From Candidatus Cybelea sp. (lineage in GTDB: Bacteria > Vulcanimicrobiota > Vulcanimicrobiia > Vulcanimicrobiales > Vulcanimicrobiaceae): 64,000 bases of DNA. Positions within the stretch are counted from its first letter, which is position 1; the number at the start of each line of letters is the position of its first letter. This document shows, in pieces, positions 2,569 to 43,195 of this stretch. Made by a program: the position numbers and the translations under genes. Location: NCBI GenBank assembly GCA_049585055.1, contig JBAUYZ010000068.1, positions 15,528 to 79,527 of the forward strand. Direction: 5' to 3'. Below the pieces are notes generated by a model, which had not been told where the DNA came from, did not search any database, and saw only the letters and a list, made by a program, of their open reading frames with translations.

Positions 2569-2697
2569 GGAGCTACGGTAGCACTCTTGGCGTTTTTTGC
2601 CAAGTACCGCGGCTTTGTCTCCAAGATCAAAAAGAGACTGGGGTCAACAGCCTATAGCTGCGAGGCGGGGAGACATTCTACCGCGGGGAAGATTCGA

Positions 2698-4287: not shown

Positions 4288-4408
4288 AGTAGAGCGACTT
4301 TTTGCCAGAATGGGCCCGTTTGCCAAATACGTTCACTTTTTCGGCGCGGATTGTTAAGATGGTGAAGAGATCGCATTTAAGGTTAGAGTTGGCTCGCTTG
4401 GAGGAATC

Positions 4409-5713
4409 GTGACTATGGTCACCCGGATCATTTTGATTTTGTGCGCGGTCGTGATGGCCGGCTGCAGCGGCAGCGCACTTAATCGAGCTTTGCCAAACGG
4501 AGTGCCTTCGATTACGAGGACGCAGTTTGCCGGGCCAAATCGGGCGGCGTCGCCGGCGTTCGAACACCTCTTTAGCTTCAACGATACCAACGGCGCCCAG
4601 CCTGAAGGCGGCCTGGTTGAACTGGGTGGCGCATTATACGGCACGACGCAGCTGGGGGGCGATAGCGGGTGCTTCGGCGGCTATAGCACACCGGGGTGCG
4701 GAACGGTCTTTACAGTGTCGACCGCCGGCAAAGAAGTCGCGCTCTATAGTTTCAAGGGCGAGCCTGACGGCGCAATATCCTGGGCACCTCTCATAAGCGC
4801 TAATGGTAAGCTATTCGGCACGACGATTAAGGGTGGGAACAGTCCGTGCGACTCCAGTGACAACGTGCCGGGTTGCGGTACCGTTTTCGAAATTACGCCG
4901 TCGGGTGGGGAGACGGTACTTCATAGTTTTCAGGGTGGCAGCGACGGCGCGACGCCGTCATTTTGGTCTCCGCTCGTCTTCGTGAAAGGCGCGATTTACG
5001 GAGTCACAGAGCAGGGTGGGGCAAATAATGCAGGTACCTTTTTCAGAGTAACGATGTCGGGTAAGGAGAGCGTTCTTTACAGCTTCAAGGCCCAATCTTC
5101 CGAATCGGATCCACGCAGCATCGTTTTTAGTAACGGGGCCTTCTACGGCGTCTCATTTGGCCAGGGAAGGACGTACAGCCCGAACTATGGCAGCGTCTTC
5201 CGAGTCACCATGTTAGGTAAAGAAAAAATAATTCACAGTTTTCAGGGTGCACCGGACGGAGCGAATCCGACCGGGCAGCTCGTCGCATCGGGGAATATGC
5301 TCTACGGCGTGACGACCAGCGGAGGCACGGGTAAATGCTATCCCTACGGCTGCGGAACCGTCTTTGGTGTGACAATTGGCGGCAAGGAAAGAGTCTTACA
5401 TCGGTTTGACTATCTTCGAACGGCAGATGGCGCGCTGCCGTACTCGGGTCTGGTCTTGCTGCACGGCGCTCTCTATGGTGCGACGGCCTCCGGAGGAGAG
5501 AAGAACAATGACGGGGGCGTCGTTTTCAAGGTGACGACGTCGGGAGCGGAGACCATACTGTATCGTTTTGGATTGTACGATAGGAACGGCACGTCTCCGG
5601 ACGGGGGCGTGACGGCGGTCGGCAACACGCTCTACGGCACCACGAGCTACGGCGGGAAGGTTAAGTCCGGCAACAAGGTCGGATACGGAACCGTCTTTAA
5701 GCTAAGATCGTAA
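4409..5713 (+). CDS. GloVer (Gloeo_Verruco, TIGR03803-type) tandem-repeat lipoprotein
   Basis: It has a lipobox (VVMAGC) followed by about 7 repeats of GG...GCGTVF.V...G.E.VLYSF.G..DGA.P...L....G.LYGTT. Confidence 0.8.
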   Translation: MTMVTRIILILCAVVMAGCSGSALNRALPNGVPSITRTQFAGPNRAASPAFEHLFSFNDTNGAQPEGGLVELGGALYGTTQLGGDSGCFGGYSTPGCGTVFTVSTAGKEVALYSFKGEPDGAISWAPLISANGKLFGTTIKGGNSPCDSSDNVPGCGTVFEITPSGGETVLHSFQGGSDGATPSFWSPLVFVKGAIYGVTEQGGANNAGTFFRVTMSGKESVLYSFKAQSSESDPRSIVFSNGAFYGVSFGQGRTYSPNYGSVFRVTMLGKEKIIHSFQGAPDGANPTGQLVASGNMLYGVTTSGGTGKCYPYGCGTVFGVTIGGKERVLHRFDYLRTADGALPYSGLVLLHGALYGATASGGEKNNDGGVVFKVTTSGAETILYRFGLYDRNGTSPDGGVTAVGNTLYGTTSYGGKVKSGNKVGYGTVFKLRS

Positions 5714-6624: not shown

Positions 6625-7944
6625 TTACGGGGTCAATAGACGGCTGCGAAGCATCCGGCGTAGAGCGTCGGGCAGACGCGGCCGGCGTACCGGCGCGCCC
6701 GCACGAAGGCCGGCCATGCCGCCGGCCGGCGTTGCCATGAAGGCCGGCGATTCGCTGCCGCAAGCACCGCTCGAGAGAACGCACGCGCCCCCGGTGATCG
6801 CGCCGCTATCGTTAATGTCGTTGGCGAAGATCAGATAGAGCGGCGAACTCGGCGGGATCAGCGTGTTGAGATCGGTCATCGTGCCGTTTTGCCAGATGAA
6901 CGCGCGGGCGCTCGATGGCCCGAACGATTCGCCGACCACCTGTCCGGTGTTGTTGATGCCGAGTGCTTCGCTATTCGTATCGCCGGGAAGCGTGCCGAGG
7001 TTCTGCATTCCCCCGCTCTTCGTCCAGAGAAATGCGACCGGATTCGGCGTGCCGTCTTGGTCGCCCGGCAAGTCGGCGAATCCGACGACGACGCCGTGAT
7101 TGTTGATTGCCATCGGCGTATTCCAAGAAACGCCGCCCAGACTTCCAAGTCGATGCACGCGTCCGTTCTCCCAGATCACCGCGTGACGGGCGGTGAAACG
7201 CCCCACGGCTTGATCGCACTTTCCGGAGATGCCGACGATCTGTCCGCGATCGTTGATCTCGGTTGCCGCGCCGTCGAGATCGCCCGGGTAGGGTGGCAGC
7301 TCGCGAATCTTCGTTCGACCCCACGGCTGGTAGACGACCGCTTCGAATCCGAGCACTTGCGGGCTCGTGCAGGTGCGATCGTGCTTGCGCGTCTCGGCCC
7401 AGCCGACGATCCTTCCGGCGTTGTTGGCGCCGGCGGCGAATCCGTTGTTGCCGCCGAGGGTTGGAAGCTGCAGCATGCGCCCGAGATGCCACGCGAAACC
7501 GCGGCAGATGCGTCCGCTGGGCGGCGGCGGGAAGAAGGCGCCCGCACACGACCAGACTTCACCGAGCTGTTGCGGTGCGCTGGTTTCGGAGATGCCGCTG
7601 ATGAGGCCGTTGTCGTTCTTGACGGGCCACTCGACGGCGCTGTTCGGGCCGCCGAGCGTGCCGAGATCGGTGGGAGCGCCGCCGTTTTGCCAGAGCGCGG
7701 CGTGAATGTAGGCACTCGAGGTTAGGGTTGAGAGACCGGTCACCCAGCCCGGATTATTGATGCTGCTGCCGGCGGCAAACGAGCCGCCGAGCGGCTGGAG
7801 CTGCGTAACCGTGTATTGCGATGACGATTGCGCGGAGTTCGCCGGAGGCACGGTGCCCACTCCGGGCGGTCCTCCGCCCGCCGACGATTGGCATCCGGCC
7901 AGAATCGTCAGCGCCAACGTGCAAGCTGCAATGCGAAATTTCAT
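6625..7944 (-). CDS. HAF-family (TIGR02913-type) extracellular repeat lipoprotein
   Basis: It has a lipobox (TILAGC) and repeated motifs: INN.GQVVG / INDRGQIVG / INDSGAITG, AFLW..GGM.NLGTL and AFIWQNGTMTDLNTL. Confidence 0.8.
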   Translation of the reverse strand: MKFRIAACTLALTILAGCQSSAGGGPPGVGTVPPANSAQSSSQYTVTQLQPLGGSFAAGSSINNPGWVTGLSTLTSSAYIHAALWQNGGAPTDLGTLGGPNSAVEWPVKNDNGLISGISETSAPQQLGEVWSCAGAFFPPPPSGRICRGFAWHLGRMLQLPTLGGNNGFAAGANNAGRIVGWAETRKHDRTCTSPQVLGFEAVVYQPWGRTKIRELPPYPGDLDGAATEINDRGQIVGISGKCDQAVGRFTARHAVIWENGRVHRLGSLGGVSWNTPMAINNHGVVVGFADLPGDQDGTPNPVAFLWTKSGGMQNLGTLPGDTNSEALGINNTGQVVGESFGPSSARAFIWQNGTMTDLNTLIPPSSPLYLIFANDINDSGAITGGACVLSSGACGSESPAFMATPAGGMAGLRAGAPVRRPRLPDALRRMLRSRLLTP

Positions 7945-8139
7945 CGGACTCCTCCATTAACGAGTATGGGAGGAGCGTAGCAGTGGTTGGAGGCGCTGTC
8001 GCCCACGTTCCGACGCTTCGGAGTACAAACGGACGGAGTTCGGCTAATGCGACGATAAGTACGGTATCCGATGGAACTGACGGCGATCGCCCGAAGATCC
8101 TTAGGCGTCGATCCGTTCTCGGATCAAGGAGCAAGGCAA

Positions 8140-9126
8140 GTGAAGGGCTTGGATTTCGGCCGCTATGTGTTAGGCGGCTTTGCTGCTGCGGCGATACTCG
8201 CGGGATGCGCCCTTCCCCTGAGCCTGTCGAAGGGTCAGGGTGACACGCAACAGCCCCCAGGCGCGTGGCTCCCGACGGCTTCTCAATCGGCCAGCCCGAA
8301 CAGACACGCCGTTTTAGCTGTGGCGAAATCGTTGCTGTATGTGGCGGATAGAACGACCGGTAGCGTCTACGTTCGAGCACTGCCGGGCGGTGCGCTCGTC
8401 CAAACGCTCTCAGGATTCCTCGAACCATACGGCGACTGCACCGACACCAAGGGCGACGTTTATATTACGGATTACGGAACGAGGGTCATTCGCGAGTACG
8501 CCCATGGTGCGGCGAACCCGATTCGCATCTTAACCGAGAGATACAGACCTTGGAGCTGCGCCGTTGATCCGCTAACTGGAGACTTGGCGGCGGCGAATGC
8601 CACGAACGAAGGTAGTCGAGGAATCGTGGCCATTTATTCGAGCGCCAAAGGCAGACCGGTTTACCGTTTTCGCAAGGGCCTTAGTTTTTTCTATTGCGCA
8701 TACGACAGCCAGGGAAACCTATTTCTCGACGGCCTCGGCCCAAGCGGAACGAGTGACGTCGGCCTGGTCGAACTTCGCAAGGGTCAAAGCGCCTTTACGA
8801 CGATCGCCCTCAATCAGAGTTTCACTTCGATCGGAGGCCTCGCGTGGAGAGGCACGCAAATGGCGGTCGGCGATCCAAAAAGTCAAATCATTTACAGTTT
8901 CAAGATGAGCGGGCAAAAGGGGGTCAAAACGGGTGGTACGCTCCTTACCGGCTCGGGCGAGCTAGGAGCGTTTTCGATCGCAAACAACGACGTCTACGTG
9001 CCGGCGGAGATCAAGGAATATCAGGGAGTCGTTCGAGTTTATCATTACCCGGCTGGCGGCCGACCGTATAGTACGTGGTTCGGTTTCGCCCTACCCACCG
9101 GTGTAGCGGTCAGCACGGTCAAATGA
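8140..9126 (+). CDS. family-A propeller-like lipoprotein (copy A1)
   Basis: A GTG start lies 8 nt after AAGGAG and aligns at nucleotide level with the start of copy A4. Lipobox AILAGC is present. Hallmark motifs are EYAHGAANP...CAVDPLTGDLA and C-terminal YHYPAGG. Confidence 0.8.
   Translation: MKGLDFGRYVLGGFAAAAILAGCALPLSLSKGQGDTQQPPGAWLPTASQSASPNRHAVLAVAKSLLYVADRTTGSVYVRALPGGALVQTLSGFLEPYGDCTDTKGDVYITDYGTRVIREYAHGAANPIRILTERYRPWSCAVDPLTGDLAAANATNEGSRGIVAIYSSAKGRPVYRFRKGLSFFYCAYDSQGNLFLDGLGPSGTSDVGLVELRKGQSAFTTIALNQSFTSIGGLAWRGTQMAVGDPKSQIIYSFKMSGQKGVKTGGTLLTGSGELGAFSIANNDVYVPAEIKEYQGVVRVYHYPAGGRPYSTWFGFALPTGVAVSTVK
8209..8252 (+). repeat. in-frame hairpin element after the lipobox codon
   Basis: CCCTTCCCCTGAGCCTGTCGAAGGGTC at 8210-8236 is identical to 9199-9225 and 13050-13076. 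It is followed by AGGGTGACACG, which resembles the intergenic repeat end TCAGGATGACACG. Confidence 0.75.
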
Positions 9127-10568
9127 GTTGGAGCGCGAATTTCGGCCGCTTAGCGACCGGCTGCTGCGTGGCTGCGGCAATGCTAGGAGGGTGCGGTGCC
9201 CTTCCCCTGAGCCTGTCGAAGGGTCCGGATGACGTGCAGCCGCCGATCGGCGTGCCGGGTGCGATGCCGCCGCGCATTAAGGATGCAGAGATCAGCCGAC
9301 CGACGAGCACGCTGAAACACATTGTGGTTGTGATTCAGGAGAATCGAACTTTCAACGATTTGTTCGCGAAGTTTCCTGGTGCCGACGGAACGACTCGAGG
9401 TCGACTTAAGAATACAAGCGGTCGCGGTTACACGTACATCGCGCTCAAAGAAGTCAATCTAGACGAGCATTGTGATTTCGGCCACGGGTACCAGGGCTTT
9501 CTGAAAAACTACGACGAGGGCGCGATGGATGGCTTTGGCCTGGTGGGCAATAAGTGTAACGGTAATCACCGAGCAGCATACCAGTACGTAAATCCTTCGC
9601 AGATTCAACCCTATTGGGACATGGCCCAGCAATACGTTCTTGGCGATCATATGTTTCAGACACAAGGCAGCGGAAGCTTTACTGCCCATCAAGACTTGAT
9701 CGCCGGGGCAACCATTATCGATCCGTACAAGACTGTAAGTCTGGTGGACTTTCCGACGCACACGCCGTGGGGCTGTGACGCGCCGCCGGGAAGCACGACG
9801 CCGAAACTGATTTGGACTGGCTCGCAGATTGTGAGCGGCCAAGGGCCGTTTCCGTGCCTCGGCTACTCAACGCTGCGCGATCTCCTCGATGCTAAAGGCG
9901 TGACGTGGAGGTACTACTCGCCCCCGATTCTAGGCCATCAACAACCTGAGGGTCGACTCTGGAATGCATTCGACGCGATCGACGCCGTACGGCACAGCAA
10001 AGAATGGGGCACGAACGTCACGTTTTCGAACGCTCTAATCTTTAAAGACATAACGAAGAACCAACTGCCGGCAGTGTCGTGGGTGATTCCGGATCGCGAG
10101 GAATCGGACCATCCGCAGTCGCCGTTCGGCGACGACGGCCCGTCATGGGTGGCGAGCATCGTCAACGCCATCGGAACGACGGCCTATTGGAACAACACGG
10201 CAATCGTCGTCGTGTGGGACGATTGGGGCGGTTTTTACGATCAGGTTTCGCCGCCGCTCACCGATCACTGGGGCGGCCTCGGATTTCGCGTGCCAATGAT
10301 CGTCGTTTCGGCCTATGCGCGGGAGCATCATAAGGGACAGCCCGGTTACATTACGCATACCAATTATGAGTTCGGAAGCATCCTGAAGTTCATCGAGCAC
10401 ACATTCGATCTGGGCACGCTGCATACGACCGATGAACGCGCCACCGGCATCGGCGACTGCTTCGACTTCACGCAGTCGCCGCGCACGTTCACAAAGATTC
10501 CATCGAGCAAGACCACGGAGTACTTCCTGCACACGCCGCCGTCGCAACTGCCGGTCGACACGGAATAG
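9123..10568 (+). CDS. phosphoesterase-family lipoprotein (PF04185; phospholipase C / AcpA-like acid phosphatase), PE1
   Basis: Motifs present: IVVVIQENRTFNDLF, SDHPQSP, GPSWVASIVNAIG, VVWDDWGGFYDQVSPP and FRVPMIVVSAYA. The ATG at 9123 overlaps the A1 stop codon (ATGA). Confidence 0.9.
   Translation: MSWSANFGRLATGCCVAAAMLGGCGALPLSLSKGPDDVQPPIGVPGAMPPRIKDAEISRPTSTLKHIVVVIQENRTFNDLFAKFPGADGTTRGRLKNTSGRGYTYIALKEVNLDEHCDFGHGYQGFLKNYDEGAMDGFGLVGNKCNGNHRAAYQYVNPSQIQPYWDMAQQYVLGDHMFQTQGSGSFTAHQDLIAGATIIDPYKTVSLVDFPTHTPWGCDAPPGSTTPKLIWTGSQIVSGQGPFPCLGYSTLRDLLDAKGVTWRYYSPPILGHQQPEGRLWNAFDAIDAVRHSKEWGTNVTFSNALIFKDITKNQLPAVSWVIPDREESDHPQSPFGDDGPSWVASIVNAIGTTAYWNNTAIVVVWDDWGGFYDQVSPPLTDHWGGLGFRVPMIVVSAYAREHHKGQPGYITHTNYEFGSILKFIEHTFDLGTLHTTDERATGIGDCFDFTQSPRTFTKIPSSKTTEYFLHTPPSQLPVDTE
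9198..9237 (+). repeat. in-frame hairpin element after the lipobox codon
   Basis: The same 27-mer as at 8210 and 13050. It encodes ALPLSLSKGPDDV between GCG and QPPIG. Confidence 0.75.
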
Positions 10569-10604
10569 CTAGTCTTTGCACCGAGCGGCTAGGCCGCGGC
10601 GGGC

Positions 10605-10871
10605 TTACGGCGCGAAGCCGTTACCATAATAGGCCGCATTCGGTGTTTTGAGGTGCCCCGCGCCAAGCGCGGTTATCACTTTTCCGTGATCGACATCAAC
10701 CTCGAGAGCTTCTGCGGGCTCTGAAGAGCTTTGGACTACGGCCCAGACGTGGTTGTGGTAAGTATGAAAGTGGCAGTTACCATTTCCAAAGCCGTAGCCC
10801 GGTGGGAGATCAATCCTATGCGACGTTTTGTACCAGTCCTTGCCGATTGTGACATAGGCGATTTTGTTCAA
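10605..10871 (-). CDS. hypothetical 88-aa protein
   Basis: ORF only, with no recognisable motif. It could be a decayed tail of the gene at 10944-11525. Confidence 0.3.
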   Translation of the reverse strand: MNKIAYVTIGKDWYKTSHRIDLPPGYGFGNGNCHFHTYHNHVWAVVQSSSEPAEALEVDVDHGKVITALGAGHLKTPNAAYYGNGFAP

Positions 10872-10943
10872 TCGACCAAAGACTAGATGCCGATTCGATG
10901 TCGTGAAGCCGCATTACTTGTGGGGGAAATCCCGATTGCATTA

Positions 10944-11525
10944 CTATCGTTGTGTACAAAACTTTGCCACTGACGGGGATACCCGCCATGGTAGCGGTGC
11001 TAGGCGATTTCTTAGGACCTTGTAAGTATGCTCGAAGCGCGTTGAGCCATAGGGATACCTGACTATGGCCTGCTGGAACCCTCCGGCCGATTCACTTTCA
11101 ACGTAAAGGTTGTCGTCAACATCAACCGTCATCGTAGAAGAGAACCCGGGCGGATGATATTCGGCAATTTGGTAGTCAAGGCGATGCGTATACTCGCGCA
11201 CGGAGGAGAAGTTGTTCTTGGTGAACACGTCTGCGTAGACATGCCCTCGGCTGTCGGTGACGACGTCGACCGGGGCAAGAGTCTTGAAGGTCTTTTCGGC
11301 GACCTTATTGCCTGCTGGATCGAACGCGATGATAGCGTGCAGTCCAGGGTCGGCAACGTACAGGTAGCTGGAAACCGCGCCGGGCTCGGCGTGCGCTGCG
11401 ATCGCGGAGGTTTGCGGAACCTGGCCGGTCGCGCCGATCGGCGGCTGGGCTCCGGCGCAGCCCGCCAGCATCGCCACAGCCATACCGCTGCACAATGTGT
11501 AACGGCTAAAATGCAAGTTCTTCAT
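10944..11525 (-). CDS. short family-A-related lipoprotein (copy A2, 193 aa, possibly truncated)
   Basis: It has the leader AMLAGCAGAQPPIGATGQVPQ, followed by YLYVADPG...REYTH...VRYPYG blades. It ends at roughly half the family length. Confidence 0.55.
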   Translation of the reverse strand: MKNLHFSRYTLCSGMAVAMLAGCAGAQPPIGATGQVPQTSAIAAHAEPGAVSSYLYVADPGLHAIIAFDPAGNKVAEKTFKTLAPVDVVTDSRGHVYADVFTKNNFSSVREYTHRLDYQIAEYHPPGFSSTMTVDVDDNLYVESESAGGFQQAIVRYPYGSTRFEHTYKVLRNRLAPLPWRVSPSVAKFCTQR

Positions 11526-11579
11526 ATGCCTTGCTCATTGATCCGTGAATGGATCGGCGACCTCGAATTAGCGCGCATC

Positions 11580-12646
11580 CTATCCGTGCGGAGCGCGGCT
11601 GATCGTCACGCCCAATAAGCCGCTCAATTTGGGTACTTTTTTCGTTGGGCGGCCTGCTGCCGGATAATGCCAAAAGCCAAGTTGGCCTTCGACATGCCCC
11701 GTCGGTACGAGAACCGCATTTCCCTCGATCCAAGACTGAACTAGGCCATGCGCCAACCATTTCCTAAGTTTCGTGGTCCCCACTATCGTTGCCGTCGAGC
11801 CGGAAAAGCTCAAGCGATGAAGTTCGTATGATCTCTTATCTTGCTCCGCCAGGCTGATATACTTTCCATCCCATTGGATCTGTCTCGGTTCGGTGATGCT
11901 CTTGCGTAAGCTGAAGGTCGAAAACGAGCTGGAGCCTTTCGGAAGGTCCGCGAGATATATCTGATCGCCGCCTCCCGTACCGTCAACGAAGAGATTCCCC
12001 TTATCGTCGTAGCCGCAAAAATAGTAGTTTGAGAATTCGGGGTCCCGATAGACGGTTGGAGCGCCCGTTGCCTTCTTGTAGATCGCCACGTACCCTGGAC
12101 CACCGACGCTGTTGATGCTTGAGACTGCAAGGTTTCCGGTTAGTGAATCAACTGCGCATCCGAATGGCCACGTTTGCTTCTCAGGGAACGTTTGAATTGG
12201 TTGACTTCCGCCGTGCGCGTATTCGTAGACGTAGCCTTGCTTTCCGCCGTCGAGCGACGCCACGAAGACATCACCGGATGAGTCTGAGCACAGCCCCTGT
12301 TGGGACAGCGTATTGGCCGGCGCAAAGGACTCGATGAAGCGTCCTTCTGGGTACGATAAGATGTCAATAGCATCGCCCGAGGAGGCGGCGTAAATTAGGT
12401 CACCGGTGGTTTGACGAACAAGCTGAGGTTGCATTGGAGACGCCTGGAAGTAGTCTCTGCGCGCGCAGCGATCGGCGACTGCGTTCCCCCGCACCCTGCC
12501 AGAATTGCCGCAGCAGCAAAGCCGCGTAGATGAAATGAGAAGGCCGGTCCCCAAAAGGGCGACTTGCTAAAAGCGCCTTTGCGCACTCGAAGTGCATTGA
12601 AAGGGGACCGACGCATGAAGCAAAGCATAGCAGACCCGGGACGCAA
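11580..12646 (-). pseudogene. family-A lipoprotein (copy A3) with signal peptide and body in different frames
   Basis: The body ORF 11580-12554 contains YEYAHGGSQP...CAVDSLTGNLAV and WHYPAGG. The lipoprotein leader (GFAAAAILAGCGGTQSPIAA) sits in ORF 12395-12646. The two frames meet at a (GC)4 tract at 12459-12466. Confidence 0.7.
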
Positions 12647-12976
12647 AACAAAGCCTGCGCGGCGACCTGCAATTCAGCGAGCCGGGTTCGCGATCGGGGC
12701 CGACGTCAGCGACAATTCAGCGAAATCTGCGTGCTTGCCCGCGTCGCGCTCGAGGCGGGAACGCACTCCGAGCCGGTCACTAAGAGCAGCCAACGCTTGC
12801 TGCGAAAACCCCGTATAGCCAGCTATATGCCGAAAGCCGTGGCCAGCGTCGTTGCCGCCGCAAAGAGAAGCGAGGAAAAGGGCCGCGCCGCCACGCGCGA
12901 TGTCGCGCGGAGCCTGGGGGCTGAGCACCGAACGTTCTTAACCGCCGGTCCGTTCATGCAGCGAGGAGCAATGCAG

Positions 12977-13987
12977 ATGAAGAGCTTGGATTTTAGACAC
13001 TACGTGTTAGGCGGCTTTGCTGCTGCCGCATTGCTGGCAGGGTGCGGCGCCCTTCCCCTGAGCCTGTCGAAGGGTCAGAGTGACACCCAGCCGCCGATCG
13101 GCGCGCCGAGCGCGATGCGGCAAAGTCGCGCAATCGCTACGCACGCCGAGCGCAGCAGATCGTGGATGCTGCCGGAAGCGAAGAGCGAGGACTTGCTTTA
13201 CGTCTCAGACTATCAGAACGGAGTAATCGTCCTCTCCTACACACCGCCGCGGTTAAAGTACGTAGGATTCCTCTCTGAGCCGCAATGGGGCGAAGGCGAG
13301 TGCGTCGACAAAGCTCAGAACGTTTTTATCACCGGTAGCGCATATGACATTGTAGAGTACGCACACGGCGCGACGACCCCGAAAGCGATCCTAACCGATC
13401 CATTTGCTCTTCCCTTGAGTTGTTCTGTCGACCCAACGACCGGAAACCTCGCCGTCGTTGGCTACCCCGATCAGTTTCACAAAATTTACGGAGCTGCAAT
13501 CTTCAAAAAGGCGCGCGGGAAGCCCACGCTCTACGAGGACACAGGCTTCGCTGCTTTCGCGTGCACTTACGATAACGAAGGTAACCTGTTTCTCGACGGC
13601 AGCCTAACGAGCAGTGTCGCCATAGCTAAGTTGCAAAAAGGCAGTAGCACCTTTACAAACATTCCGCTCGAGCAATCGTTCAATGCGGTCGGCGGTATAC
13701 AGTGGGATGGTCAGTACGTCGCGGTTGGCGATTACTACAATGCAGTGATTTATGAGTTCGAGATCAACGGAAGCAGCGCGACGAAAGTTGGCTCCACGCC
13801 TTTAGGCGGCTCGGGTACGGTTCTACAGTTCTTCATTGACCGTGGCAGAGTGATCGTGCCCAGCACCTTTCAAAATTACTCCGGTTTCGTGAAGATCTTC
13901 GACTATCCAGCGGGCGGCGCAGCCAAGAGAACGCATGACGTTGGCAGCCCTAACGGAACCGTCGTTAGCCGCGCGCGACGCCACTAA
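12977..13987 (+). CDS. family-A propeller-like lipoprotein (copy A4)
   Basis: The ATG lies 8 nt after GAGGAG. The leader is MKSLDFRHYVLGGFAAAALLAGCG. Hallmarks EYAHGATTP...CSVDPTTGNLAV and FDYPAGG are present. Confidence 0.85.
   Translation: MKSLDFRHYVLGGFAAAALLAGCGALPLSLSKGQSDTQPPIGAPSAMRQSRAIATHAERSRSWMLPEAKSEDLLYVSDYQNGVIVLSYTPPRLKYVGFLSEPQWGEGECVDKAQNVFITGSAYDIVEYAHGATTPKAILTDPFALPLSCSVDPTTGNLAVVGYPDQFHKIYGAAIFKKARGKPTLYEDTGFAAFACTYDNEGNLFLDGSLTSSVAIAKLQKGSSTFTNIPLEQSFNAVGGIQWDGQYVAVGDYYNAVIYEFEINGSSATKVGSTPLGGSGTVLQFFIDRGRVIVPSTFQNYSGFVKIFDYPAGGAAKRTHDVGSPNGTVVSRARRH
13049..13088 (+). repeat. in-frame hairpin element after the lipobox codon
   Basis: The identical 27-mer (13050-13076) followed by AGAGTGACACC. 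It encodes ALPLSLSKGQSDT. Confidence 0.75.
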
Positions 13988-14151
13988 GTCTTAAAAGCAG
14001 GAGCAGCGAGTGGGCAAAGACCGATGAAGATTTCAAGCCTCGGCCGTTATGCACTCGTATCCCTTTCCGCAGAACGGGTACTGACACTACGTAAGAGCTC
14101 CGTCAAAAGTCAGGATGGAAGTAATGCTTGTGATAACCGAGCGCGATGACG

Positions 14152-14233
14152 TTATTGCCCTGAAGCCCAAATCTGACCGGGCCCGCCGATCGGTGGCTGC
14201 GATCCACCGCTATGCCCGAGCTCTGCAGACCGT
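14152..14233 (-). pseudogene. remnant of a family-A leader
   Basis: Directly 3' of copy A5, the minus strand reads ...GGSQPPIGGPGQ followed by a stop. This is the family's post-lipobox motif with no body attached. Confidence 0.35.
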
Positions 14234-15211
14234 TCACTTGAGGCTAACCGCTTCTCCGGACGGCGCTTGGTCGGAAAAGCTTTTGACCGGAGAACCACCG
14301 GCGGGAAACCGCCAGAACCCGAAGGCTCGTACCGAGTCATACGCGATCGGCCCGATAACCGTGCTACCCTGAATCCAAAATTGCGCGCGTGCGTACGAAA
14401 GTTGGAGCGTTGTCTTGCTGACTTTCGTTCCGGAGCTTCCACTCAGCGCGAAGCGATAGATGACCGATGGGCTAGAAGAGCCCGTGCCGAGGTCTGCGAT
14501 TGCGAGGTATTTCCCATCCCACTGCATCGAACCCGCGGCGCTGATAGTTTGATCGAGGGTTATCGTCGTAAAAGTCTTGCTGCCCTTTTGCAGCTCCGCG
14601 AGCCTAAAGCCTCCGCTGGAGCCCCCTCCATCAACAAAAAGGTCGCCGTTCTTGTCGTATGTACAAAAGGTAATGGATTGCATGTCGGGATCTGCGTACG
14701 ACTTGGCGTAGCGCCAGCCTCGCTTTTGGCTGTACGGGAAGATGACGATCCCGCCTCCGAAGCCCTCGGTGACGGCCAGAGTCTCGCTGGTCGGGTCCAC
14801 CGAGCAGTCAACAGCCGCGTACGGATCGTTGAGCGTAACCTTCGGCGTTATTGCACCATGAGCATAAACCAGTATCTGCGTCCCAAAGAGGCCTGCCGGG
14901 ATAAATACGTTATTCGCCCTATCAGTGCAAAGATAGAGCCCACCGACTCCGAGCGAGCCGAGCAGACCGCCGCGAGGATACGTGTAGACGTTGACTTCAT
15001 TCCCCAGTGCGATGTAGAGAAGGTCGCGTCCCTTCGCCTCGGGCCGCATCCACGATCCGCCATGCCCGGCGTGCATTGCGATCGTGCCGTTTTGCGGCAT
15101 CGAGCCTGATCCTACGATCGGCGGCTGCGATCCGCCGCACCCGGCCAGCATCGCCGTAGCGATGAAAATGCTGAGCGCAACGTGGCCACAATCTGAGCTC
15201 TTCACCTGCAT
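14234..15211 (-). CDS. family-A propeller-like lipoprotein (copy A5)
   Basis: The leader is AMLAGCGGSQPPIVGSGSMPQ. Hallmarks VYAHGAITP...CSVDPTSETLAV and WRFPAGG are present. Confidence 0.85.
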   Translation of the reverse strand: MQVKSSDCGHVALSIFIATAMLAGCGGSQPPIVGSGSMPQNGTIAMHAGHGGSWMRPEAKGRDLLYIALGNEVNVYTYPRGGLLGSLGVGGLYLCTDRANNVFIPAGLFGTQILVYAHGAITPKVTLNDPYAAVDCSVDPTSETLAVTEGFGGGIVIFPYSQKRGWRYAKSYADPDMQSITFCTYDKNGDLFVDGGGSSGGFRLAELQKGSKTFTTITLDQTISAAGSMQWDGKYLAIADLGTGSSSPSVIYRFALSGSSGTKVSKTTLQLSYARAQFWIQGSTVIGPIAYDSVRAFGFWRFPAGGSPVKSFSDQAPSGEAVSLK

Positions 15212-15548
15212 TGCTCCCTCGCTCCGATAAATCGATAGGCGGCTTGGAACATTCGGCGCTTAGCGCCGAGCCCCCGCAGGTAATGGGCATCGTGATCGCA
15301 TGTGTATTAAGTAGGCGCGTTCGTAGGGCAGGCTGTTCAAGCGATCGCAAGGGGTATCGCATGACGTTGTGCCAGCTGCGCGCCCGGAGGCTAAAAGCGC
15401 CGCGGAGCCCTGCGCGGCCATAGTCGCGGCTACTTATCGGATGTTGCGAATGGGGCCATTGTAAAGGCAGCGCTGCAATGCGACACGTTGAGATGCTTAG
15501 GCGAGCCGGCTCGTACGAACTGCGCGATCAACGCGTCGGTACAGGGCG

Positions 15549-15722
15549 TTACGTGGTGTGACCGGCGCCCGCGACGATTATCTGCCGAGCGTTGGTTAGG
15601 AATCGCAGTGCCTCCGTTGCGAATCGCGGCGGCGTCGTCGGATCATCCGAGCCGCTAATCAACAGGATGCGCAAGTCGCTGCGAACACCCTCGATCCTGA
15701 GCTGAACTACCGAGGGCCTTAT
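15549..15722 (-). pseudogene. C-terminal remnant of an alpha/beta hydrolase
   Basis: My translation is IRPSVVQLRIEGVRSDLRILLISGSDDPTTPPRFATEALRFLTNARQIIVAGAGHTT followed by a stop. This is the typical hydrolase tail carrying the catalytic His. An in-frame stop lies upstream and there is no N-terminal part. Confidence 0.45.
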
Positions 15723-15846
15723 CTAGTATGAGCGGCCTGCTCCATCCAGCATCTGCGGTAGAAGCGGGAAAGCAGGCGCGACCGGAAGTTCTTAAGCCCT
15801 TATGTCGTGACTTTCGTCTCGGGATAAGAGGATCAAGTGATCGGGC

Positions 15847-16410
15847 TTGAAACAACAAAATGGGATAGGCGGGGCGAAGCAAGGTCTGACCGCTGCATCA
15901 TTGGAGGCGACAAGCCGAATGGGAAGCGAGGAAACCCAAGGGGACTACATCGGCCGGGTTAAGCAGTATCAGAACTGGTACGATGGCAAGGCTGTGAAAT
16001 GCAAATCGCGGTATCTCTCCATGCGGGTTATCGCCGTTGTGGGAGCTCTGCTCGTTCCGGTAACCGTGAATTTACCCGACATCTCGCCTCACCTCGCCGT
16101 TGGTAAGCCTGTCAGCACGCTGTTGGGAATTGTAATCGCGGCCACCGTCTCTCTGGAAGGTGTGTATCACTACCGCGAACAGTGGAAGAACTACCGCTCG
16201 ACCGAACAGTACTTAGGTCGCGAGCTTGTCTATTACGAGACCGGTACCGGACCTTACGATCATATCACCGCCGAGATTGCATTCCGGCTTCTCGTAGATC
16301 GCGTCGAGAGGGCGATTGCTGCGGAGAACGCATCGACTTTGAGCGTGATGACACTGGCTAATACCCAGGGAGGGTCAGCGTCATCCTCTTTGACCCCGCC
16401 GGGCGGCTAG
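15847..16410 (+). CDS. DUF4231 / SLATT-family two-TM protein
   Basis: KQYQNWYDGKAVKCKSRYLSMRVIAVVGALLVPV is followed by a second TM segment and then YHYREQWKNYRSTEQYLGRELVYYETGTGPY, which fits the DUF4231 pattern. The real start may be the ATG at 15919. Confidence 0.65.
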   Translation: MKQQNGIGGAKQGLTAASLEATSRMGSEETQGDYIGRVKQYQNWYDGKAVKCKSRYLSMRVIAVVGALLVPVTVNLPDISPHLAVGKPVSTLLGIVIAATVSLEGVYHYREQWKNYRSTEQYLGRELVYYETGTGPYDHITAEIAFRLLVDRVERAIAAENASTLSVMTLANTQGGSASSSLTPPGG

Positions 16411-16550
16411 ATCCTCCGCCGATCTGCGGGCGCCACCAACTCAAATCTGATGTCGATCGCAGCCGAGCCAGTCAAGAAGGTATCTCGTCTTGAAAGCTGC
16501 GGCCTCACGCCTCGCACGTGGGCCGACGCTGCTCGTGTTAGAATCACGGA

Positions 16551-17063
16551 GTGGAAAACCACTCCATTAGTACCTCGACCGTGAACTGGAGGCCAAAGCA
16601 TGGGCTGATCGGGTTGGTAATCTGCGTCCTCTGTGCGGAAGGGGTAGTCGCCGGGTTGGACCGATCATGTATGCTTTCATTCAACCTTGGCATCTTGGCT
16701 GGACAACTGCTAGTTTTGAATATGTTTGGCGCTCCAGAAATAATGGGTATGGTGGCTGGAATTCCGGCATTCTTAATCGCGGCGTTCCCCGACAACGTGA
16801 ATTTACGTCGCGATGGACTCTTCCTTGCGTTTACTTTACTAGCGATCGTAGCGATCGCTCTTGTCGCAGCCATGCGCGCAGGTTGGCAGGGATTTCTACT
16901 CTTCGTCGCGCTCATTGGCGCAGGATCACTACTGGGCTTTTGGACGCGAGCGTTGGAAGAGTTCCGGCAGTTCTGGTTGCCCATTGGCATTTTGTTGGCT
17001 CTCTCAGTAGCGGGCGTCATTTTCTTATATGGACACTATGGCCAGAACAACTGTTGGCCGTGA
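16551..17063 (+). CDS. hypothetical multi-pass membrane protein
   Basis: A 170-aa ORF with 4-5 hydrophobic helices. Local GC content is visibly lower than in the flanks. Confidence 0.5.
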   Translation: MENHSISTSTVNWRPKHGLIGLVICVLCAEGVVAGLDRSCMLSFNLGILAGQLLVLNMFGAPEIMGMVAGIPAFLIAAFPDNVNLRRDGLFLAFTLLAIVAIALVAAMRAGWQGFLLFVALIGAGSLLGFWTRALEEFRQFWLPIGILLALSVAGVIFLYGHYGQNNCWP

Positions 17064-17561
17064 AGGCTCGCGCAGCCACCCCGTTTCGCCCCGCAGCGCA
17101 CCAAGCGGCAATGCGACCGGCGCCCCATGAACGTTCCCTCTTTTGTCTAGCGGTGCGCGACACTCACGGTTACGCCGTACGCCGACGTCACAGAGATCGT
17201 GTTCACCGGCGACCCGCCGGCCGGATAGTTTGCCCTGTATCCAGAACTGCGCTACCATCTTCACGCCCTTAAGGACCGCCGCGCAAACTGCGAGGTTCGC
17301 GATCAGTGGGTCCGCAGAGCAGCTCCCCCGGGCGCTCAAGGTCGCAATCGGGCTAGCGCCGTCGTGGGCGAACTCGTAAAGGCACTGGGACGTCGAGATG
17401 AAGACGTCACCGACCTTATTCGAACACGCATGATCCGGCGATGAAAAATATCCCAGCGTTCCGTGCGCTTTGGCTCTTGGGTAGCTGTACACGAAGACCG
17501 CTTCCGGAGAGGTTACCGCGTAAAGCAAGTCTTGGTCGTAGCCGTCCGGCCTGCTCGGCAA
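17025..17561 (-). pseudogene. decayed family-A copy with an internal deletion
   Basis: QDLLYAVT...YEFAHDGASPIATL...CSADPLIANLAV jumps directly to AQFWIQG, a late-family motif. There is no signal peptide and the tail is Arg-rich. Confidence 0.5.
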
Positions 17562-17780
17562 TCCGTCGCGATCGGCGTGCTTGGCGACCGCGCTCCGTGA
17601 CTCCTCGATCCGTGAACGGATCTGACTCGTAGAACGTTCGGACCTTAGCGCCGTGCTCCCGCGCAGCGTAGCTTTCGGTGGTCGGATCGCTACTCTAGCT
17701 CTTACGGCTGCGAAGCGAGTACGGCCGAGCCGCTGATGAAGCTGACGAGTGCCGCGAGGTTCGAGAGTGACATGGTTATC

Positions 17781-17877
17781 CGTTCGTCCTTCGTGGTTCG
17801 TCCTTCGTCCTTCGACTCCGGCGCTTCGCGCCTGCGCTCAGGATGACACAGCTTGGCGCCTGCGCTCAGATGACACA
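17781..17877 (+). repeat. REP/MITE-like intergenic element (CCTTCG xN, CCTTCGAC, hairpin, GCTCAGGATGACAC; 1.5 copies)
   Basis: The sequence reads ...TCCTTCGACTCCGGCGCTTCGCGCCTGCGCTCAGGATGACACAG CTTGGCGCCTGCGCTCAGATGACACAG. Confidence 0.85.
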
Positions 17878-17904
17878 GTCTGGCGGAGCTACGTCAGAGT
17901 TTCG

Positions 17905-20022
17905 CTAGCGGAGGAAGGCTACTAGTAGGAGGGCGACGATGTTGAGGACTTTGATCATTGGGTTGATTGCGGGGCCGGCGGTGTCTTTGTAGGGATCGCC
18001 GACCGTGTCGCCGGTGACGGCTGCCTGATGCGCGATCGAGCCTTTGCCGCCGTAGTTTCCGTCTTCGATGTATTTCTTGGCGTTATCCCAGGCGCCGCCG
18101 CCCGATGTAAACGAGATCGCGACGAAGAAGCCCGTGACGATCGAACCCAGGAGAATGCCGCCCATCATCTGCGCGCCGGTATCGCCGGGGAAGACGCCGG
18201 TGAATGAGAGGATGACGACGAGCAACGGAACGCCGACCGGAATCAATGCCGGAACGATCATCTCGCGCAGCGCCGCTCGCGTGACGATGTCGACGGTCGT
18301 TGCATAGTTCGGCCGCGCGGTGCCTTCCATGATGCCGGGAATCTCGCGGAACTGACGGCGCACTTCCTCGACGACCGAACTGGCGGCGCGTCCGACGGAC
18401 TGCATCGAGAGCGACGCGAAGAGATAGGGAAGGAGGCCGCCGATGAAGAGTCCGGTGAGCACGAACGGATTGCCGATTGCGAAGAGATTGCGAACGCCGT
18501 TGGTACAGGCGATCGTCGGCACGCCCGGGCACTTGTGGTTGATCAGTTGCTGCAGGAACGAGGCGAAGAGGACGATCGCGGCGAGCGCGGCCGAGCCGAT
18601 CGCGTAGCCCTTGGTGACGGCCTTGGTCGTATTGCCGACGGCGTCGAGCGGATCGGTGACGGCGCGCACGTCGTCCGGCATATCGGCCATCTCGGCGATG
18701 CCGCCGGCGTTGTCGGTGATCGGGCCGAACGAGTCGATCGCGACGATGATTCCCGCCATTGAGAGCATCGACATCACGGCGATGCCGACGCCGTAGACGC
18801 CCGCCATCGCGTAGCTGACCAGGATGCCCACCACGATGACGATTGCGGGTAGTGCCGTCGCCTGCATCGAGACCGCGAGACCGGCGATGATGTTCGTCGC
18901 GTGACCGGTGAGCGAAGCCTTTGCGATCGAGCGTACCGGTCCGAACTGCGTGCCGGTATAGTATTCGGTTATGAGCGTGATAAGCGCCGTGATAACGATG
19001 CCGACGACCGCACAGATGAATATGCTGTTCTGGCCGATGCCCGCGGCAACGGCCTCCGGCGCGCCGAAGACACGCTGCGTGGCAAAGTAGAAGCCGATCA
19101 GCGCGAGAATGCTGGCGACCACCATTCCACGGTAAAGCGCGGCCATGATCTTCGTTTTGCGGACCTGGCCGACGCCGACGAAGATGACGCCGACGATCGA
19201 AGCGACGATCGAGACTGCGCCGAGTAGGAGCGGGAACGTGGTTGCGTTCGGAATCGCCGCGCCGAAGAGCAGATTGCCGAGCAGCATCGCGGCGACCGTC
19301 GTAACGCAGTACGTCTCGAAGAGGTCGGCCGCCATGCCGGCGCAGTCGCCGACGTTGTCGCCCACGTTATCGGCAATGACGGCCGGGTTGCGCGGATCGT
19401 CTTCAGGAATTCCGGCTTCGACTTTTCCGACCAGGTCGGCGCCGACGTCGGCGGCCTTCGTATAGATTCCGCCGCCAAGACGCGCAAATACGGAGATCAG
19501 CGAGCATCCGAAAGCGAGCCCGACCATCGCGTTGAGCGACGTGGCGGAATCGCCGTTGTTGACGGCTTGGAGTATCGCGTAATACCCAGAGACGGCGAGC
19601 AGTCCCAGACCGACGACCAACATGCCGGTAACCGAGCCACCGCGAAATGCGACGTTGAGCGCCGGCGTAAGGCCGCCGCGCGCCGCTTCGGCCGTGCGAA
19701 CGTTCGCGCGCACCGACACGACCATCCCGATGAAACCGGCAGCTCCCGAAAGGATGGCGCCGATCAAGAAACCGATGGCGGCTTCCTTGCCGAGCGTCGG
19801 AGCGAAGAGTATCACGATCGCGAGAACGATTGCGACGATCCCGATCGTCATATACTGACGCTGGAGAAATGCCATCGCGCCTTCTTGGATCGCGAGGGCG
19901 ATCTCGCGCATGCGCTCGTTGCCGGCGGGCTGGGCGATCACCCAGAAGGTCAGCGCGATGCCGTAGAGCACCGCGAGGGCTCCGCCGATAAGTCCGGTGT
20001 CGATCGCTGTCTGTGCGGTCAT
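17905..20022 (-). CDS. hppA: membrane-bound H+-translocating pyrophosphatase (K+-independent type)
   Basis: A 705-aa ORF with [20 protein letters not shown] and [15 protein letters not shown] (Lys rather than Ala) is the published K+-independence signature. Confidence 0.95.
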
Positions 20023-43170: not shown

Positions 43171-43195
43171 GCCAACTGGAATACAGGAGCAGCCG

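Follow-up and report, generated by a model that had tools for sequence, protein, structure and literature searches.

A lineage-restricted multigene family of predicted lipoprotein beta-propellers in Candidatus Cybelea

A DNA stretch of 64,000 nucleotides (the window) from Candidatus Cybelea sp., an uncultured soil bacterium of the Eremiobacterota represented by a metagenome-assembled genome (MAG) of 3.11 Mb in 115 contigs, was found to carry several members of a real, lineage-specific and previously undescribed multigene family (family A), whose shared features are not chance similarity. On balance, we favour the reading that family A consists of lineage-restricted lipoprotein propellers with paralogue-specific binding in the cell envelope, which evolve by gene-level birth-and-death. 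The family is of moderate interest; related species each hold a largely different set of copies.

Copies were placed using an open reading frame (ORF) listing together with a family HMM run on all six frames of the window. Six full-length genes, one truncated gene and three remnants were located, the full-length genes matching the HMM at E 3e-77 to 4e-144. A first-pass annotation had described five clustered copies and two more at 38136 and 58725; these positions were borne out, but only six copies are full-length, the second in the cluster being truncated. A1 (ORF 8140-9126, HMM match 8143-9120, plus strand) is full-length (HMM 2-324, E 2.5e-101) and has a GTG start, the lipobox LAGC and an in-frame REP-like insert, ALPLSLSKG. 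A2 (10944-11525, minus strand; HMM match 11154-11525) is a 193-amino-acid ORF matching HMM 1-129 only (E 1.6e-16); its recognisable part comprises the leader and about two blades, and a homologous C-terminal half was not found downstream. A3 (ORF region 11580-12646, minus strand) retains a full propeller body (11589-12521, E 2.8e-77), while its signal peptide and lipobox lie at 12446-12535 (leader E 4.5e-05) in a different frame. The frame switches at a (GC)4 tract (12459-12466), the only repeat-tract candidate, and loss of a single GC unit would bring both frames together. A4 (ORF 12977-13987, HMM match 12977-13978, plus strand, E 3.8e-144) is full-length and is the copy that was modelled, and A5 (ORF 14234-15211, HMM match 14240-15202, minus strand, E 3.1e-105) is a full-length lipoprotein. 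Two further full-length copies are A6 (ORF 38136-39206, HMM match 38142-39197, minus strand, E 6.5e-81) and A7 (ORF 58725-59726, HMM match 58737-59717, plus strand, E 5.4e-119), in which the canonical ATG of MKSLDF is now ATC at 58725, placing the ORF start at the TTG at 58734. The window copies are mutually divergent (31-44% amino acid identity), the five other full copies being 32-41% identical to A1, with 29 invariant columns; the motifs previously listed as shared were all present in the alignments.

Intact, truncated, frameshifted and internally deleted copies had been reported side by side, and all four kinds were located with the HMM and ORFs, as was each of the three remnants reported at 14152, 17025 and 58332. 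The orphan remnant at 14152-14215 (minus strand; LGHSGGSQPPIGGPG; repeat D4, 78% to the A2 leader region) is a decayed leader only, in which the lipobox Cys is replaced by Ser and which ends after ∼20 codons, directly past the A5 stop. The pseudogene of the 17025 region (17153-17641, minus strand) matches HMM 37-153 at 17274-17603 and HMM 299-325 at 17153-17230 in another frame; blades 3-5 are missing through an internal deletion, a frameshift is present, and because the shared 5'UTR (17600-17641) abuts HMM position 37 the leader was also deleted. The remnant of the 58332 region (58299-58613) occupies both strands: its leader and first blade (HMM 7-67) read from the minus strand at 58449-58595 and its HMM 89-133 part from the plus strand at 58299-58432, an arrangement which would fit a small internal inversion within a truncated pseudogene.

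Lipobox leaders are general throughout the family, a simple pattern search detecting a lipobox in 37 of 47 family A ORFs. The 5'UTR and leader are conserved at 72-90% nucleotide identity upstream of the divergent bodies. The similarity between A1 and A4 noted earlier across the ribosome-binding site and first codons was reproduced, amounting to 79% over 168 nt (-49 to +116).

A profile search of the genome identified 117 places, with ∼45 full-length family A copies, and ∼41 distant NHL-like ones. Paralogues in the genome are typically 33-48% identical, the closest pair 65%, and pseudogenes and fragments occur elsewhere in the genome as well as in the window. Family A genes are mostly singletons flanked by unrelated genes, and adjacency of two family A genes was observed six times genome-wide against 0.8 expected. 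At E<=1e-30 each of the 24 congeners searched first had the family, and none of 16 genomes representing other families in the order and class did. Of the 71 genera sampled in the phylum, four had it: Candidatus Cybelea itself and three sister genera, all in one Eremiobacterota family. The same threshold returned 3,316 clusters from a 50%-identity library. Comparison of copy number across relatives, as the earlier annotation had proposed, gave between 20 and at least 53 copies per near-complete congener (E<=1e-30); first-look candidate counts follow genome size (rho 0.87-0.90).

The fold predicted with confidence for family A is a six-bladed propeller of the NHL/YWTD type, which follows a lipobox and a disordered tether. 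The beta-propeller guessed at from recurring motifs was upheld by the AlphaFold2 model of A4 (pTM 0.81), in which 24 strands form six blades; over residues 61-330 no ten-residue block had a pLDDT below 91 and most reached 96-98, and the first 60 residues stayed below 55. The architecture would thus run from a Sec/SPase-II signal peptide with the lipobox Cys, through a disordered Pro/Gly/Ser-rich tether of ∼35-45 residues, to a single propeller, the first blade of which, as strand and motif register suggest, is completed by the C-terminal strand. Strand order and motif register also place two nearly invariant cysteines (C109 and C149, each 97% conserved in the family alignment) on the innermost strands of adjacent blades, where they probably form a disulfide. 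No Pfam or NCBIfam model scored above cut-off for the window copies (NHL 11.9-17.5 bits, cut-off 20; SGL 22.4 bits, cut-off 26.3), and only seven of 64 family members touched NHL or SGL at E<=0.01. What the PDB profile search and Foldseek matched were six-bladed propellers of a generic kind (Pizza/PknD, LDLR-type YWTD, nidogen), with identity no higher than 21%. The claim of novelty therefore held, since searches of Pfam, NCBIfam, PDB and Foldseek yielded no confident match to a characterised enzyme family.

The best sequence-profile matches were the NHL propellers (PF01436), namely Pizza (E 1e-22), a set of designs derived from PknD, and the sensor domain of Mycobacterium tuberculosis PknD itself (E 2e-16; PDB 1RWI/1RWL), which were also among the top structural matches. 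These have six four-stranded blades and are extracytoplasmic, as in family A, and their blade motif G-x-a-v-D..G-N-l-y-V-a-D is recognisable in family A blades 1-4. However, identity is <=21%, Pfam NHL is under cut-off in every window copy, and the PknD propeller is a kinase sensor domain whereas family A proteins are stand-alone lipoproteins with motifs of their own (SWM, YAHG, QW-DG and YPAGG), the conserved Cys pair and blades that are not near-identical. Foldseek with the A4 model gave a probability of 1.0 to the YWTD (LDL-receptor class B) propellers of LRP2/megalin and LDLR, to Pizza6/PknD and to nidogen; YWTD propellers, including LRP4/6, were the top matches (E 3e-9), with a TM-score normalised to target of up to 0.81 for nidogen (1NPE). 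YWTD propellers are six-bladed, non-catalytic modules that bind ligands or partners, but they are eukaryotic, belong to multidomain receptors with EGF modules and are only 11-15% identical; the fold is in common, and common family membership is not demonstrable.

Propeller faces were assigned from strand order and motif register. The face formed by the A-B and C-D loops, with the motifs D-x-x-G-N, YAHG and YPAGG, is conserved and common to all paralogues (2.3-2.5 bits, ∼0.6 inserted residues per loop class per sequence; 95 sequences), whereas that formed by the B-C and D-A loops is hypervariable (0.9-1.3 bits, ∼10 inserted residues in all; Mann-Whitney p 1.7e-10). The latter side is the usual ligand face of propellers. 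It differs between paralogues and is kept within an orthologue group, being 74-88% identical among A4 orthologues on metagenome contigs; in the family alignment no residue of its loops besides G107 reached >=80% conservation. The asymmetry is partly generic to NHL/YWTD repeats, in which a structural motif sits in the A-B turn. Given one conserved face opposite one that is hypervariable between paralogues only, and given no conserved candidate active site, non-catalytic, paralogue-specific binding in the cell envelope appears the most likely function. The phylum is diderm (PMC9758169, PMC6664022), and a periplasmic location is therefore as possible as a surface one.

An enzymatic role is unlikely by comparison with such binding. 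Family A proteins might be extracytoplasmic Ca2+-dependent lactonases or phosphotriesterases of the SGL/DFPase/PON type, with substrates differing by paralogue, perhaps acting upstream of AcpA-like phosphoesterases. The SMP-30/gluconolactonase/LRE-like (PF08450) and DFPase/paraoxonase hydrolases belong to the same propeller clan, A6 accounts for the sub-threshold SGL match, the PDB profile search included DFPase matches (E 5e-4 to 0.16), JGI annotates one homologue as 'sugar lactone lactonase YvrE', and the genes are set among phosphate-scavenging genes with PF04185 neighbours. Yet all of these matches, the seven members at E<=0.01 included, are under curated cut-offs and cover one or two blades only, which amounts to repeat-level similarity, and the top structural matches are non-enzymatic. 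No conserved Glu/Asn/Asp/His constellation, and no conserved candidate metal ligands or catalytic His, were seen on the variable (ligand) face or at the starts of the innermost strands, and the conserved Asp residues belong to the structural D-x-x-G-N turns.

The clustered copies lie in a variable slot (7945-17904) between a HAF-repeat lipoprotein gene (6625-7944) and hppA (17905-20022), which besides family A holds a phosphoesterase gene (PE1, below), a DUF4231/SLATT gene (15847-16410) and a small membrane ORF. Seven of eight compared congeners keep HAF beside hppA; in these the interval measures 20 bp to 2.8 kb, against 10 kb here, and contains no family A remnants, and therefore the cluster is a lineage-specific insertion. 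In a closer relative (L061/L062) the same slot is filled with other copies, only A4 being common (78% amino acid identity). Of the window copies, A4 alone has clear orthologues, at 76-86% in four metagenome contexts and 61% in one congener (G013); these lie in five different contexts, with nucleotide homology confined to the gene itself. One-to-one conservation of the copies among relatives was thus refuted. In a three-genome tree A4 was again the only window copy with a supported orthologue; about 27 of 45 copies had no well-supported partner, ∼14 cross-species clades were supported and genome labels were randomly spread (41 changes against 40.4 when shuffled), although turnover in the tree may be overstated because some best matches at 40-50% may be unrecognised orthologues. 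Syntenic non-housekeeping orthologues in the genus are only 42-64% identical. The synteny result is independent of this problem.

Turnover is of the gene-level birth-and-death type and not rapid or accelerated sequence diversification. The description of the copies as a rapidly diversifying or contingency family was not supported at the sequence level, where the paralogues are old and dN/dS among A4 orthologues, the one orthologue group for which it was calculated, was 0.10-0.26, indicating purifying selection; the single control gene, rplJ, gave 0.13 between the window and the L061/L062 organism. Family A evolves through old paralogues, frequent loss, pseudogenisation and relocation, single genes moving between sites and the rplJ-hppA slot being one of the hotspots.

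That family A forms a variable coat on the surface or a contingency system, its repertoire or expression being switched by recombination or slipped-strand mispairing for escape from phages, predators or competitors, is decidedly improbable. In the mycoplasma vsp/vlp/vsa systems the mature parts diverge behind a conserved 5'UTR and lipoprotein leader, clustered genes point both ways and repertoires vary by strain; the mature parts are low-complexity repeats and switching relies on defined machinery (invertases, homopolymer or SSR tracts). Family A resembles these in its conserved leaders, divergent bodies, both orientations and differing repertoires between species, and the leader inverted repeats (e.g. 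40 nt at 90% around the A3-A4 intergenic region), the A3 frameshift at (GC)4, the pseudogenes and the inverted-looking remnant would agree with switching. Nevertheless, family A proteins are predicted to be folded propellers, the cluster showed no recombinase, invertase or other switching machinery, (GC)4 falls short of a convincing contingency tract in length, near-identical silent cassettes are absent from this genome, A4 orthologues are under purifying selection with the variable face kept, and surface exposure is putative in a diderm phylum. It is highly improbable that the cluster is a binning or assembly artefact, such as collapsed or chimeric repeats. The MAG is fragmented, multicopy families with shared leaders misassemble easily and a sequencing error could explain the A3 frameshift, but the copies are too divergent for collapse, the backbone on both sides (rplJ, AraC, HAF, hppA, sigma factor) is collinear with eight congeners, similar clusters are seen in congeners with closed or near-closed genomes and in ENA and JGI assemblies made independently, and G+C (0.56-0.58 over the cluster, 0.57-0.66 in the rest of the window) shows no break.

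A1 is followed by PE1 (9123-10568, plus strand, E 8.6e-54), a PF04185 phosphoesterase lipoprotein of the AcpA/PLC type which is a neighbour and not a family member. The A1 TGA stop overlaps the PE1 ATG (ATGA), one leader module with a 25-26-nt insert is common to A1, A4 and PE1 (PE1 against A4, 140 nt at 76%), A6 sits between two PF04185 genes (36684-38075, minus strand; 39282-40730, plus strand), and in congeners G021 and G017 a family A gene lies 20 nt upstream of a phosphoesterase gene on the same strand. These observations could point to dedicated PF04185 partners (chaperones, inhibitors, self-protection factors or substrate presenters) encoded in translationally coupled pairs, as could the correlation between candidate counts of the two families in 25 genomes (rho 0.70). 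We regard such partnership as quite unlikely, given that immediate adjacency is at chance level genome-wide (4 observed, 2.6 expected), that most of the ∼78 PF04185 genes in the genome form phosphoesterase-only tandem arrays (30 such adjacencies) while family A genes are mostly solitary, and that the correlation is largely lost when genome size is controlled (partial r 0.29).

Binding in the cell envelope would place family A within a greatly expanded extracytoplasmic lipoprotein set of this lineage, along with the PF04185 phosphoesterases, GloVer- and HAF-repeat proteins and S53-like peptidases; from their co-occurrence, the set probably serves nutrient capture in oligotrophic soil or peat. 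ScyE/ScyF-like NHL (42100-44170), GloVer-repeat (TIGR03803; 4409-5713) and HAF-repeat (TIGR02913; 6625-7944) proteins are matched by existing NCBIfam models, unlike family A, and share with it a lipobox leader, the same islands and lineage-specific expansion. Genome-wide, the distant NHL-like class lies next to a phosphoesterase gene six times, against 2.3 expected.

The copies in the window were located from ORF lists and a six-frame search with a family HMM, and every copy, truncation and remnant named in the first-pass annotation was confirmed. Six copies of the lipoprotein family under study (family A) were full-length, with E 3e-77 to 4e-144 against the family HMM: A1 (8143-9120, + strand), A3 (full-length body, 11589-12521, - strand), A4 (12977-13978, + strand), A5 (14240-15202, - strand), A6, the copy at 38136 (38142-39197, - strand), and A7 (58737-59717, + strand). 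The other five shared 32-41% identity with A1, and 29 alignment columns were invariant. All of the shared motifs that had been described were found in the family-A alignments, and the nucleotide similarity reported between A1 and A4 was reproduced, at 79% over 168 nt (-49 to +116).

Four degraded copies were detected in the window with the family HMM, and elsewhere in the source genome (G000) copies were split or had internal stops. A2 (10944-11525, - strand, 193 aa) is truncated and retained HMM positions 1-129 alone, and no homologous continuation was found downstream of it. The remnant at 17025 kept HMM positions 37-153, had lost blades 3-5 and carried its C-terminus in another frame; the 5'UTR common to the copies (17600-17641) was joined straight to the mature part, and the leader has therefore been deleted. 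The remnant at 58332 (58299-58595), upstream of A7, matched HMM positions 7-67 on the - strand and 89-133 on the + strand, which suggests an inversion of ∼135 bp within the pseudogene; the inverted repeat around it was merely 10 nt long (58312-58321 and 58468-58477). At 14152-14215 a decayed leader alone was present (LGHSGGSQPPIGGPG). The body and signal peptide of A3 lay in different frames, the switch falling at a (GC)4 tract (12459-12466).

A lipobox fitting [LVI][ASTVI][GAS]C was found, as LAGC, LAAC or similar, in A1, A2 and A4-A7 and in the leader frame of A3. By pattern it was present in 37 of the 47 family-A copies in G000 and was followed by a Pro/Gly/Ser-rich tether. On these leaders the proteins are predicted substrates of SPase II, that is, bacterial lipoproteins. 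The Eremiobacterota are diderm (PMC9758169, PMC6664022), so the family-A proteins would be located in the periplasm or on the cell surface. No account of the family was found in the literature on Eremiobacterota lipoproteins or outer membrane, Baltobacteraceae and Cybelea.

No Pfam or NCBIfam model reached its cut-off for the window copies. NHL (PF01436) scored 11.9, 15.6 and 17.5 bits in three of them and gave no match in the others (gathering cut-off 20), and SGL (PF08450) scored at best 22.4 bits against a cut-off of 26.3, with the last 60 model positions alone covered; just 7 of 64 family members touched NHL or SGL at E<=0.01. A profile of six copies searched against PDB matched the PknD sensor domain and the Pizza designer propellers derived from it (E 2e-16 to 1e-22), and DFPase weakly. 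A confident AlphaFold2 model of A4, generated from a 64-sequence alignment (pTM 0.81), contained 24 strands arranged as six four-stranded blades. Within residues 61-330 no ten-residue block had a pLDDT below 91 and most had 96-98; the first 60 residues, comprising signal peptide and tether, were disordered. Foldseek against PDB returned the six-bladed YWTD propellers of LRP2, LDLR, LRP4/6 and nidogen (target-normalised TM 0.81) and Pizza/PknD, with an identity never above 21%. Model, profile and Foldseek all indicated a six-bladed propeller of four-stranded blades with the NHL blade motif. Both the beta-propeller fold and the uncharacterised status proposed for these lipoproteins were thereby upheld, and family A is a new branch, without an existing model, of the NHL/YWTD six-bladed propeller class. 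That fold is very common, and what is new here is a branch of it rather than a type of system; the result is descriptive and moderately surprising, and the structure and evolution of the family are well supported.

Conservation was assessed by aligning 95 full-length family members drawn from three genomes, with strand order and the register of the blade motifs used to assign loops to the two propeller faces. The A-B and C-D loops, which include D-x-x-G-N, YAHG and YPAGG, carried 2.3-2.5 bits and hardly any indels, compared with 0.9-1.3 bits and ∼10 inserted residues per sequence in the B-C and D-A loops (Mann-Whitney p 1.7e-10). G107 (A4 numbering) was the sole residue of the variable face conserved at 80% or above, and no conserved acidic, Asn or His residues were found in the variable-face loops or at the innermost-strand starts of the 95 aligned sequences. 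C109 and C149, on the innermost strands of adjacent blades, were 97% conserved and presumably form a disulfide. Among A4 orthologues on metagenome contigs the variable face was itself 74-88% conserved. As judged from sequence conservation, this pattern fits a scaffold with stable, paralogue-specific binding surfaces and does not fit a common active site; the members of family A are most likely binding modules that lack catalytic activity. The identity of the ligands would reveal what these bacteria capture or sense.

G000 is 3.11 Mb in 115 contigs and is 96% complete. It contained 45 full-length family-A copies under a strict domain filter, and a crude gene set gave 47 family-A genes plus ∼41 more distant NHL-like lipoproteins, equivalent to ∼1.5% of the genes, or ∼3% with the distant relatives counted. 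At E<=1e-30 the family was present in 24 of 24 congeners and absent from 16 of 16 genomes of other families of the order and class. A survey of 151 genomes of the phylum located it in 4 of 71 genera, all of one family, and the public homologues with a named source came exclusively from Candidatus Cybelea or Baltobacteraceae. Copy number, when compared across related genomes, ranged from 20 to at least 53 in near-complete congeners (E<=1e-30), with 45, 32 and 18 full-length copies in G000 and the related genomes G021 and G013, respectively. First-look candidates numbered 95-386 in genomes at least 90% complete and tracked genome size within the genus (rho 0.87-0.90). In a 50%-identity library, 3,316 clusters matched at E<=1e-30 and 8,722 at E<=1e-10, among them fusions of two or three propellers. 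Fused proteins of 550-920 aa are represented by library proteins P0121-P0130, and G000 encodes two tandem propellers in one open frame (C10:38838-40772). Peat, tundra and other oligotrophic soils harbour abundant Eremiobacterota, nearly all of them uncultured, and large paralogue families specific to one lineage are a common feature of soil bacteria. More than 3,300 clusters are now without a Pfam or NCBIfam model, and a model for the family would give thousands of 'hypothetical proteins' an annotation.

The backbone rplJ - o1477 - AraC - HAF - hppA - sigma factor was common to eight congeners, a few of which were without individual genes. The A1-A5 cluster is situated between the HAF-repeat lipoprotein gene and hppA. 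The distance between these two genes was 20 bp to 2.8 kb in the seven congeners that keep HAF beside hppA, against 10 kb in the window, and no family-A fragments were found in the gaps of those seven. The A1-A5 cluster is therefore a lineage-specific insertion, and it also takes in PE1 (the PF04185 phosphoesterase lipoprotein gene directly after A1), a DUF4231/SLATT gene and the remnant at 17 kb. On two ENA contigs of a closer relative (L061/L062, hppA 89% nt identity) the same interval holds 17 kb of family-A, NHL, GloVer and PF04185 genes. A4 alone was common to the two slots (78% aa), the other L061/L062 copies being 31-38% identical to any window copy. Orthologues of A4 (76-86% aa) were found in five distinct genomic settings, and nucleotide homology ended with the gene. 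Inspection of the cluster revealed neither a recombinase nor a tRNA or IS element, the first 25 kb of the window contained no tRNA, and promoter and terminator scans for island landmarks gave background levels.

Two further features of this region were recorded. The DUF4231/SLATT_1 gene (15847-16410) lies within the variable slot and no partner genes were recognised nearby; SLATT_1 is a SMODS- and SLOG-associating 2TM effector domain, and SLATT-type domains are typical of defence islands. Relative to congeners, 2488-5713 is an insertion between o1477 and the AraC-family gene, consisting of a 599-aa ORF with a weak HTH_23 match and a GloVer-repeat lipoprotein gene (TIGR03803, E 4e-55). There are ∼30 GloVer-type genes in G000, and they also adjoin family-A copies in two related genomes (G024 and G169) and at loci L001, L061 and L065.

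A maximum-likelihood tree of the full-length copies from G000, G021 and G013 was star-like with randomly distributed genome labels (41 changes vs 40.4 when shuffled). Approximately 14 cross-species clades had support, ∼27 of the 45 G000 copies were without a well-supported partner, and A4 was the sole window copy to have one (G013, 61%). Non-housekeeping syntenic orthologues are only 42-64% identical in the genus, so that some true orthologues may have escaped the tree; the evidence for turnover from synteny is independent of any such omission. Nearest-paralogue identity within G000 was typically 33-48%. Species-specific recent expansions were ruled out, as no G000 pair exceeded 65% identity and the tree showed no clustering by genome. 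In G021 one near-identical family-A pair was observed (L046; C1:855344-856342 and 870421-871419; branch lengths 0.006 and 0.02); these genes, 15 kb apart in opposite orientation, are a recent duplication, and births still occur.

The paralogues were too divergent for meaningful dS; pairwise dN/dS (NG86) was calculated for five A4 orthologues, representing one orthologue group, with rplJ as the sole control. The hppA gene was unusable as a control because the L062 copy is frameshifted or misassembled, being called in two pieces of 118 and 203 aa (L062 19919-20883). The A4 orthologues gave dN/dS of 0.10-0.26 at dS of 0.68-1.18, and rplJ gave 0.13 in the same genome pair. Positive selection, which would show as elevated dN/dS, was rejected for the A4 orthologues on these values. 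Given old paralogues and a low A4 dN/dS, the family evolves through the gain, loss, relocation and decay of genes; accelerated substitution is not its mode of change. Old divergent paralogues stand alongside pseudogenes and fragments, copy number varies, and one-to-one orthology and synteny are lacking. The birth-and-death process put forward in the first-pass annotation is thus supported by the degraded copies, the spread of copy number, the slot without a cluster in seven congeners and the random labels of the tree. The rapid diversification and the contingency character that it also attributed to the family found no support at the sequence level, given the low A4 dN/dS and the age of the paralogues. 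Candidate phase-variation features at the cluster were limited to the leader inverted repeats and to the (GC)4 tract where A3 is frameshifted, and no recombinase was found there.

Nucleotide-level repeats among the copies were restricted to the 5'UTR and leader regions (40-140 nt, 72-90% identity), in both direct and inverted orientation, and were found in PE1 also. A 5'UTR of ∼55 nt, CCGAAnGTTC..CGATCCGTTCAnGGATCnAGGAGCAAGGCAn-ATG, precedes A1, A2, A4, A5, the 17-kb remnant and A7 (8085-8139, 11526-11580, 12922-12976, 15206-15260, 17600-17641 and 58670-58724, respectively). A regulon-wide 5'UTR was ruled out: beyond the window copies, an nhmmer model (-55 to -1) matched just two or three others, and most of the ∼40 other family copies were without this sequence. 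Within the 5'UTR of A1, A2, the 17-kb remnant and a copy on C83 is a 16-nt palindrome, GATCCGTKMWCGGATC, a possible operator or small RNA hairpin. An exact 25-mer, CCCTTCCCCTGAGCCTGTCGAAGGG, encoding ALPLSLSKG, occurred five times in G000 (window 8209-8233, 9198-9222 and 13049-13073; C10:73188-73212 and C10:72111-72135), on all five occasions in frame directly after the lipobox Cys or Cys-Gly. Its hosts belong to family A and PF04185, with an unclassified remnant ORF in addition, and two further lipoprotein genes carry it with one or two mismatches. The 25-mer contains the reverse complement of motifs from a REP-like element of G000 (CCTTCGAC, GCTCAGG).

The leader similarity could have arisen by recombination or gene conversion of a leader cassette. 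The leader repeats and the 25-mer are the basis of a wider reading, in which a modular lipoprotein system specific to the lineage would have family A as its main cargo, with a portable recombination-handle module for swapping, moving and re-promoting propeller genes between hotspots and Cybelea species. Such a module would comprise promoter, 5'UTR, lipobox leader and tether, with DNA-level similarity kept across unrelated protein families, and the REP-derived in-frame insert of 25-26 nt directly after the lipobox Cys would belong to it. We regard this wider reading as improbable. If true, it would constitute a gene-cassette mechanism for rapid re-tooling of the envelope-binding repertoire, and we know of no such mechanism in bacteria beyond the mycoplasma-type variable lipoproteins. 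The A3 and A4 leaders contain a 40-nt inverted repeat of 90% identity (12489-12528 and 13008-13047) flanking a 479-bp divergent promoter region, and recombination there would invert the promoter segment.

A functional partnership with the PF04185 (AcpA/PLC-type) phosphoesterase lipoproteins was also considered. The stop codon of A1 overlaps the start of PE1 (ATGA), and family-A/phosphoesterase gene pairs were found in G021 and in a further related genome, G017. PF04185 was expanded in 25 of 25 genomes of the genus searched (34-116 first-look candidates). Immediate adjacency of the two families was at the chance level in a G000 gene-adjacency permutation test (4 observed vs 2.6 expected), and the enriched adjacencies were those within each family (A-A, 6 vs 0.8 expected; phosphoesterase-phosphoesterase, 30 vs 2.1 expected). 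The partial correlation of the two copy numbers given genome size was 0.29, genome size accounting for most of the correlation between them. Dedicated coupling to PF04185 as a general rule is ruled out by these data, and family A is therefore not a dedicated phosphoesterase partner. The recurrent neighbours of family A were large LuxR/LAL-type regulators, GloVer-repeat lipoproteins (TIGR03803), XRE-ATPase-TPR regulators and an S53-like peptidase. With family A and ∼78 PF04185 paralogues in G000, the lineage devotes much of its accessory genome to envelope lipoproteins. Five PF04185 genes lie in the window (9123-10568, 36684-38075, 39282-40730, 40734-42065 and 49821-51281). Many of the G000 copies are in tandem arrays, and contig C46 carries ∼20 in tandem.
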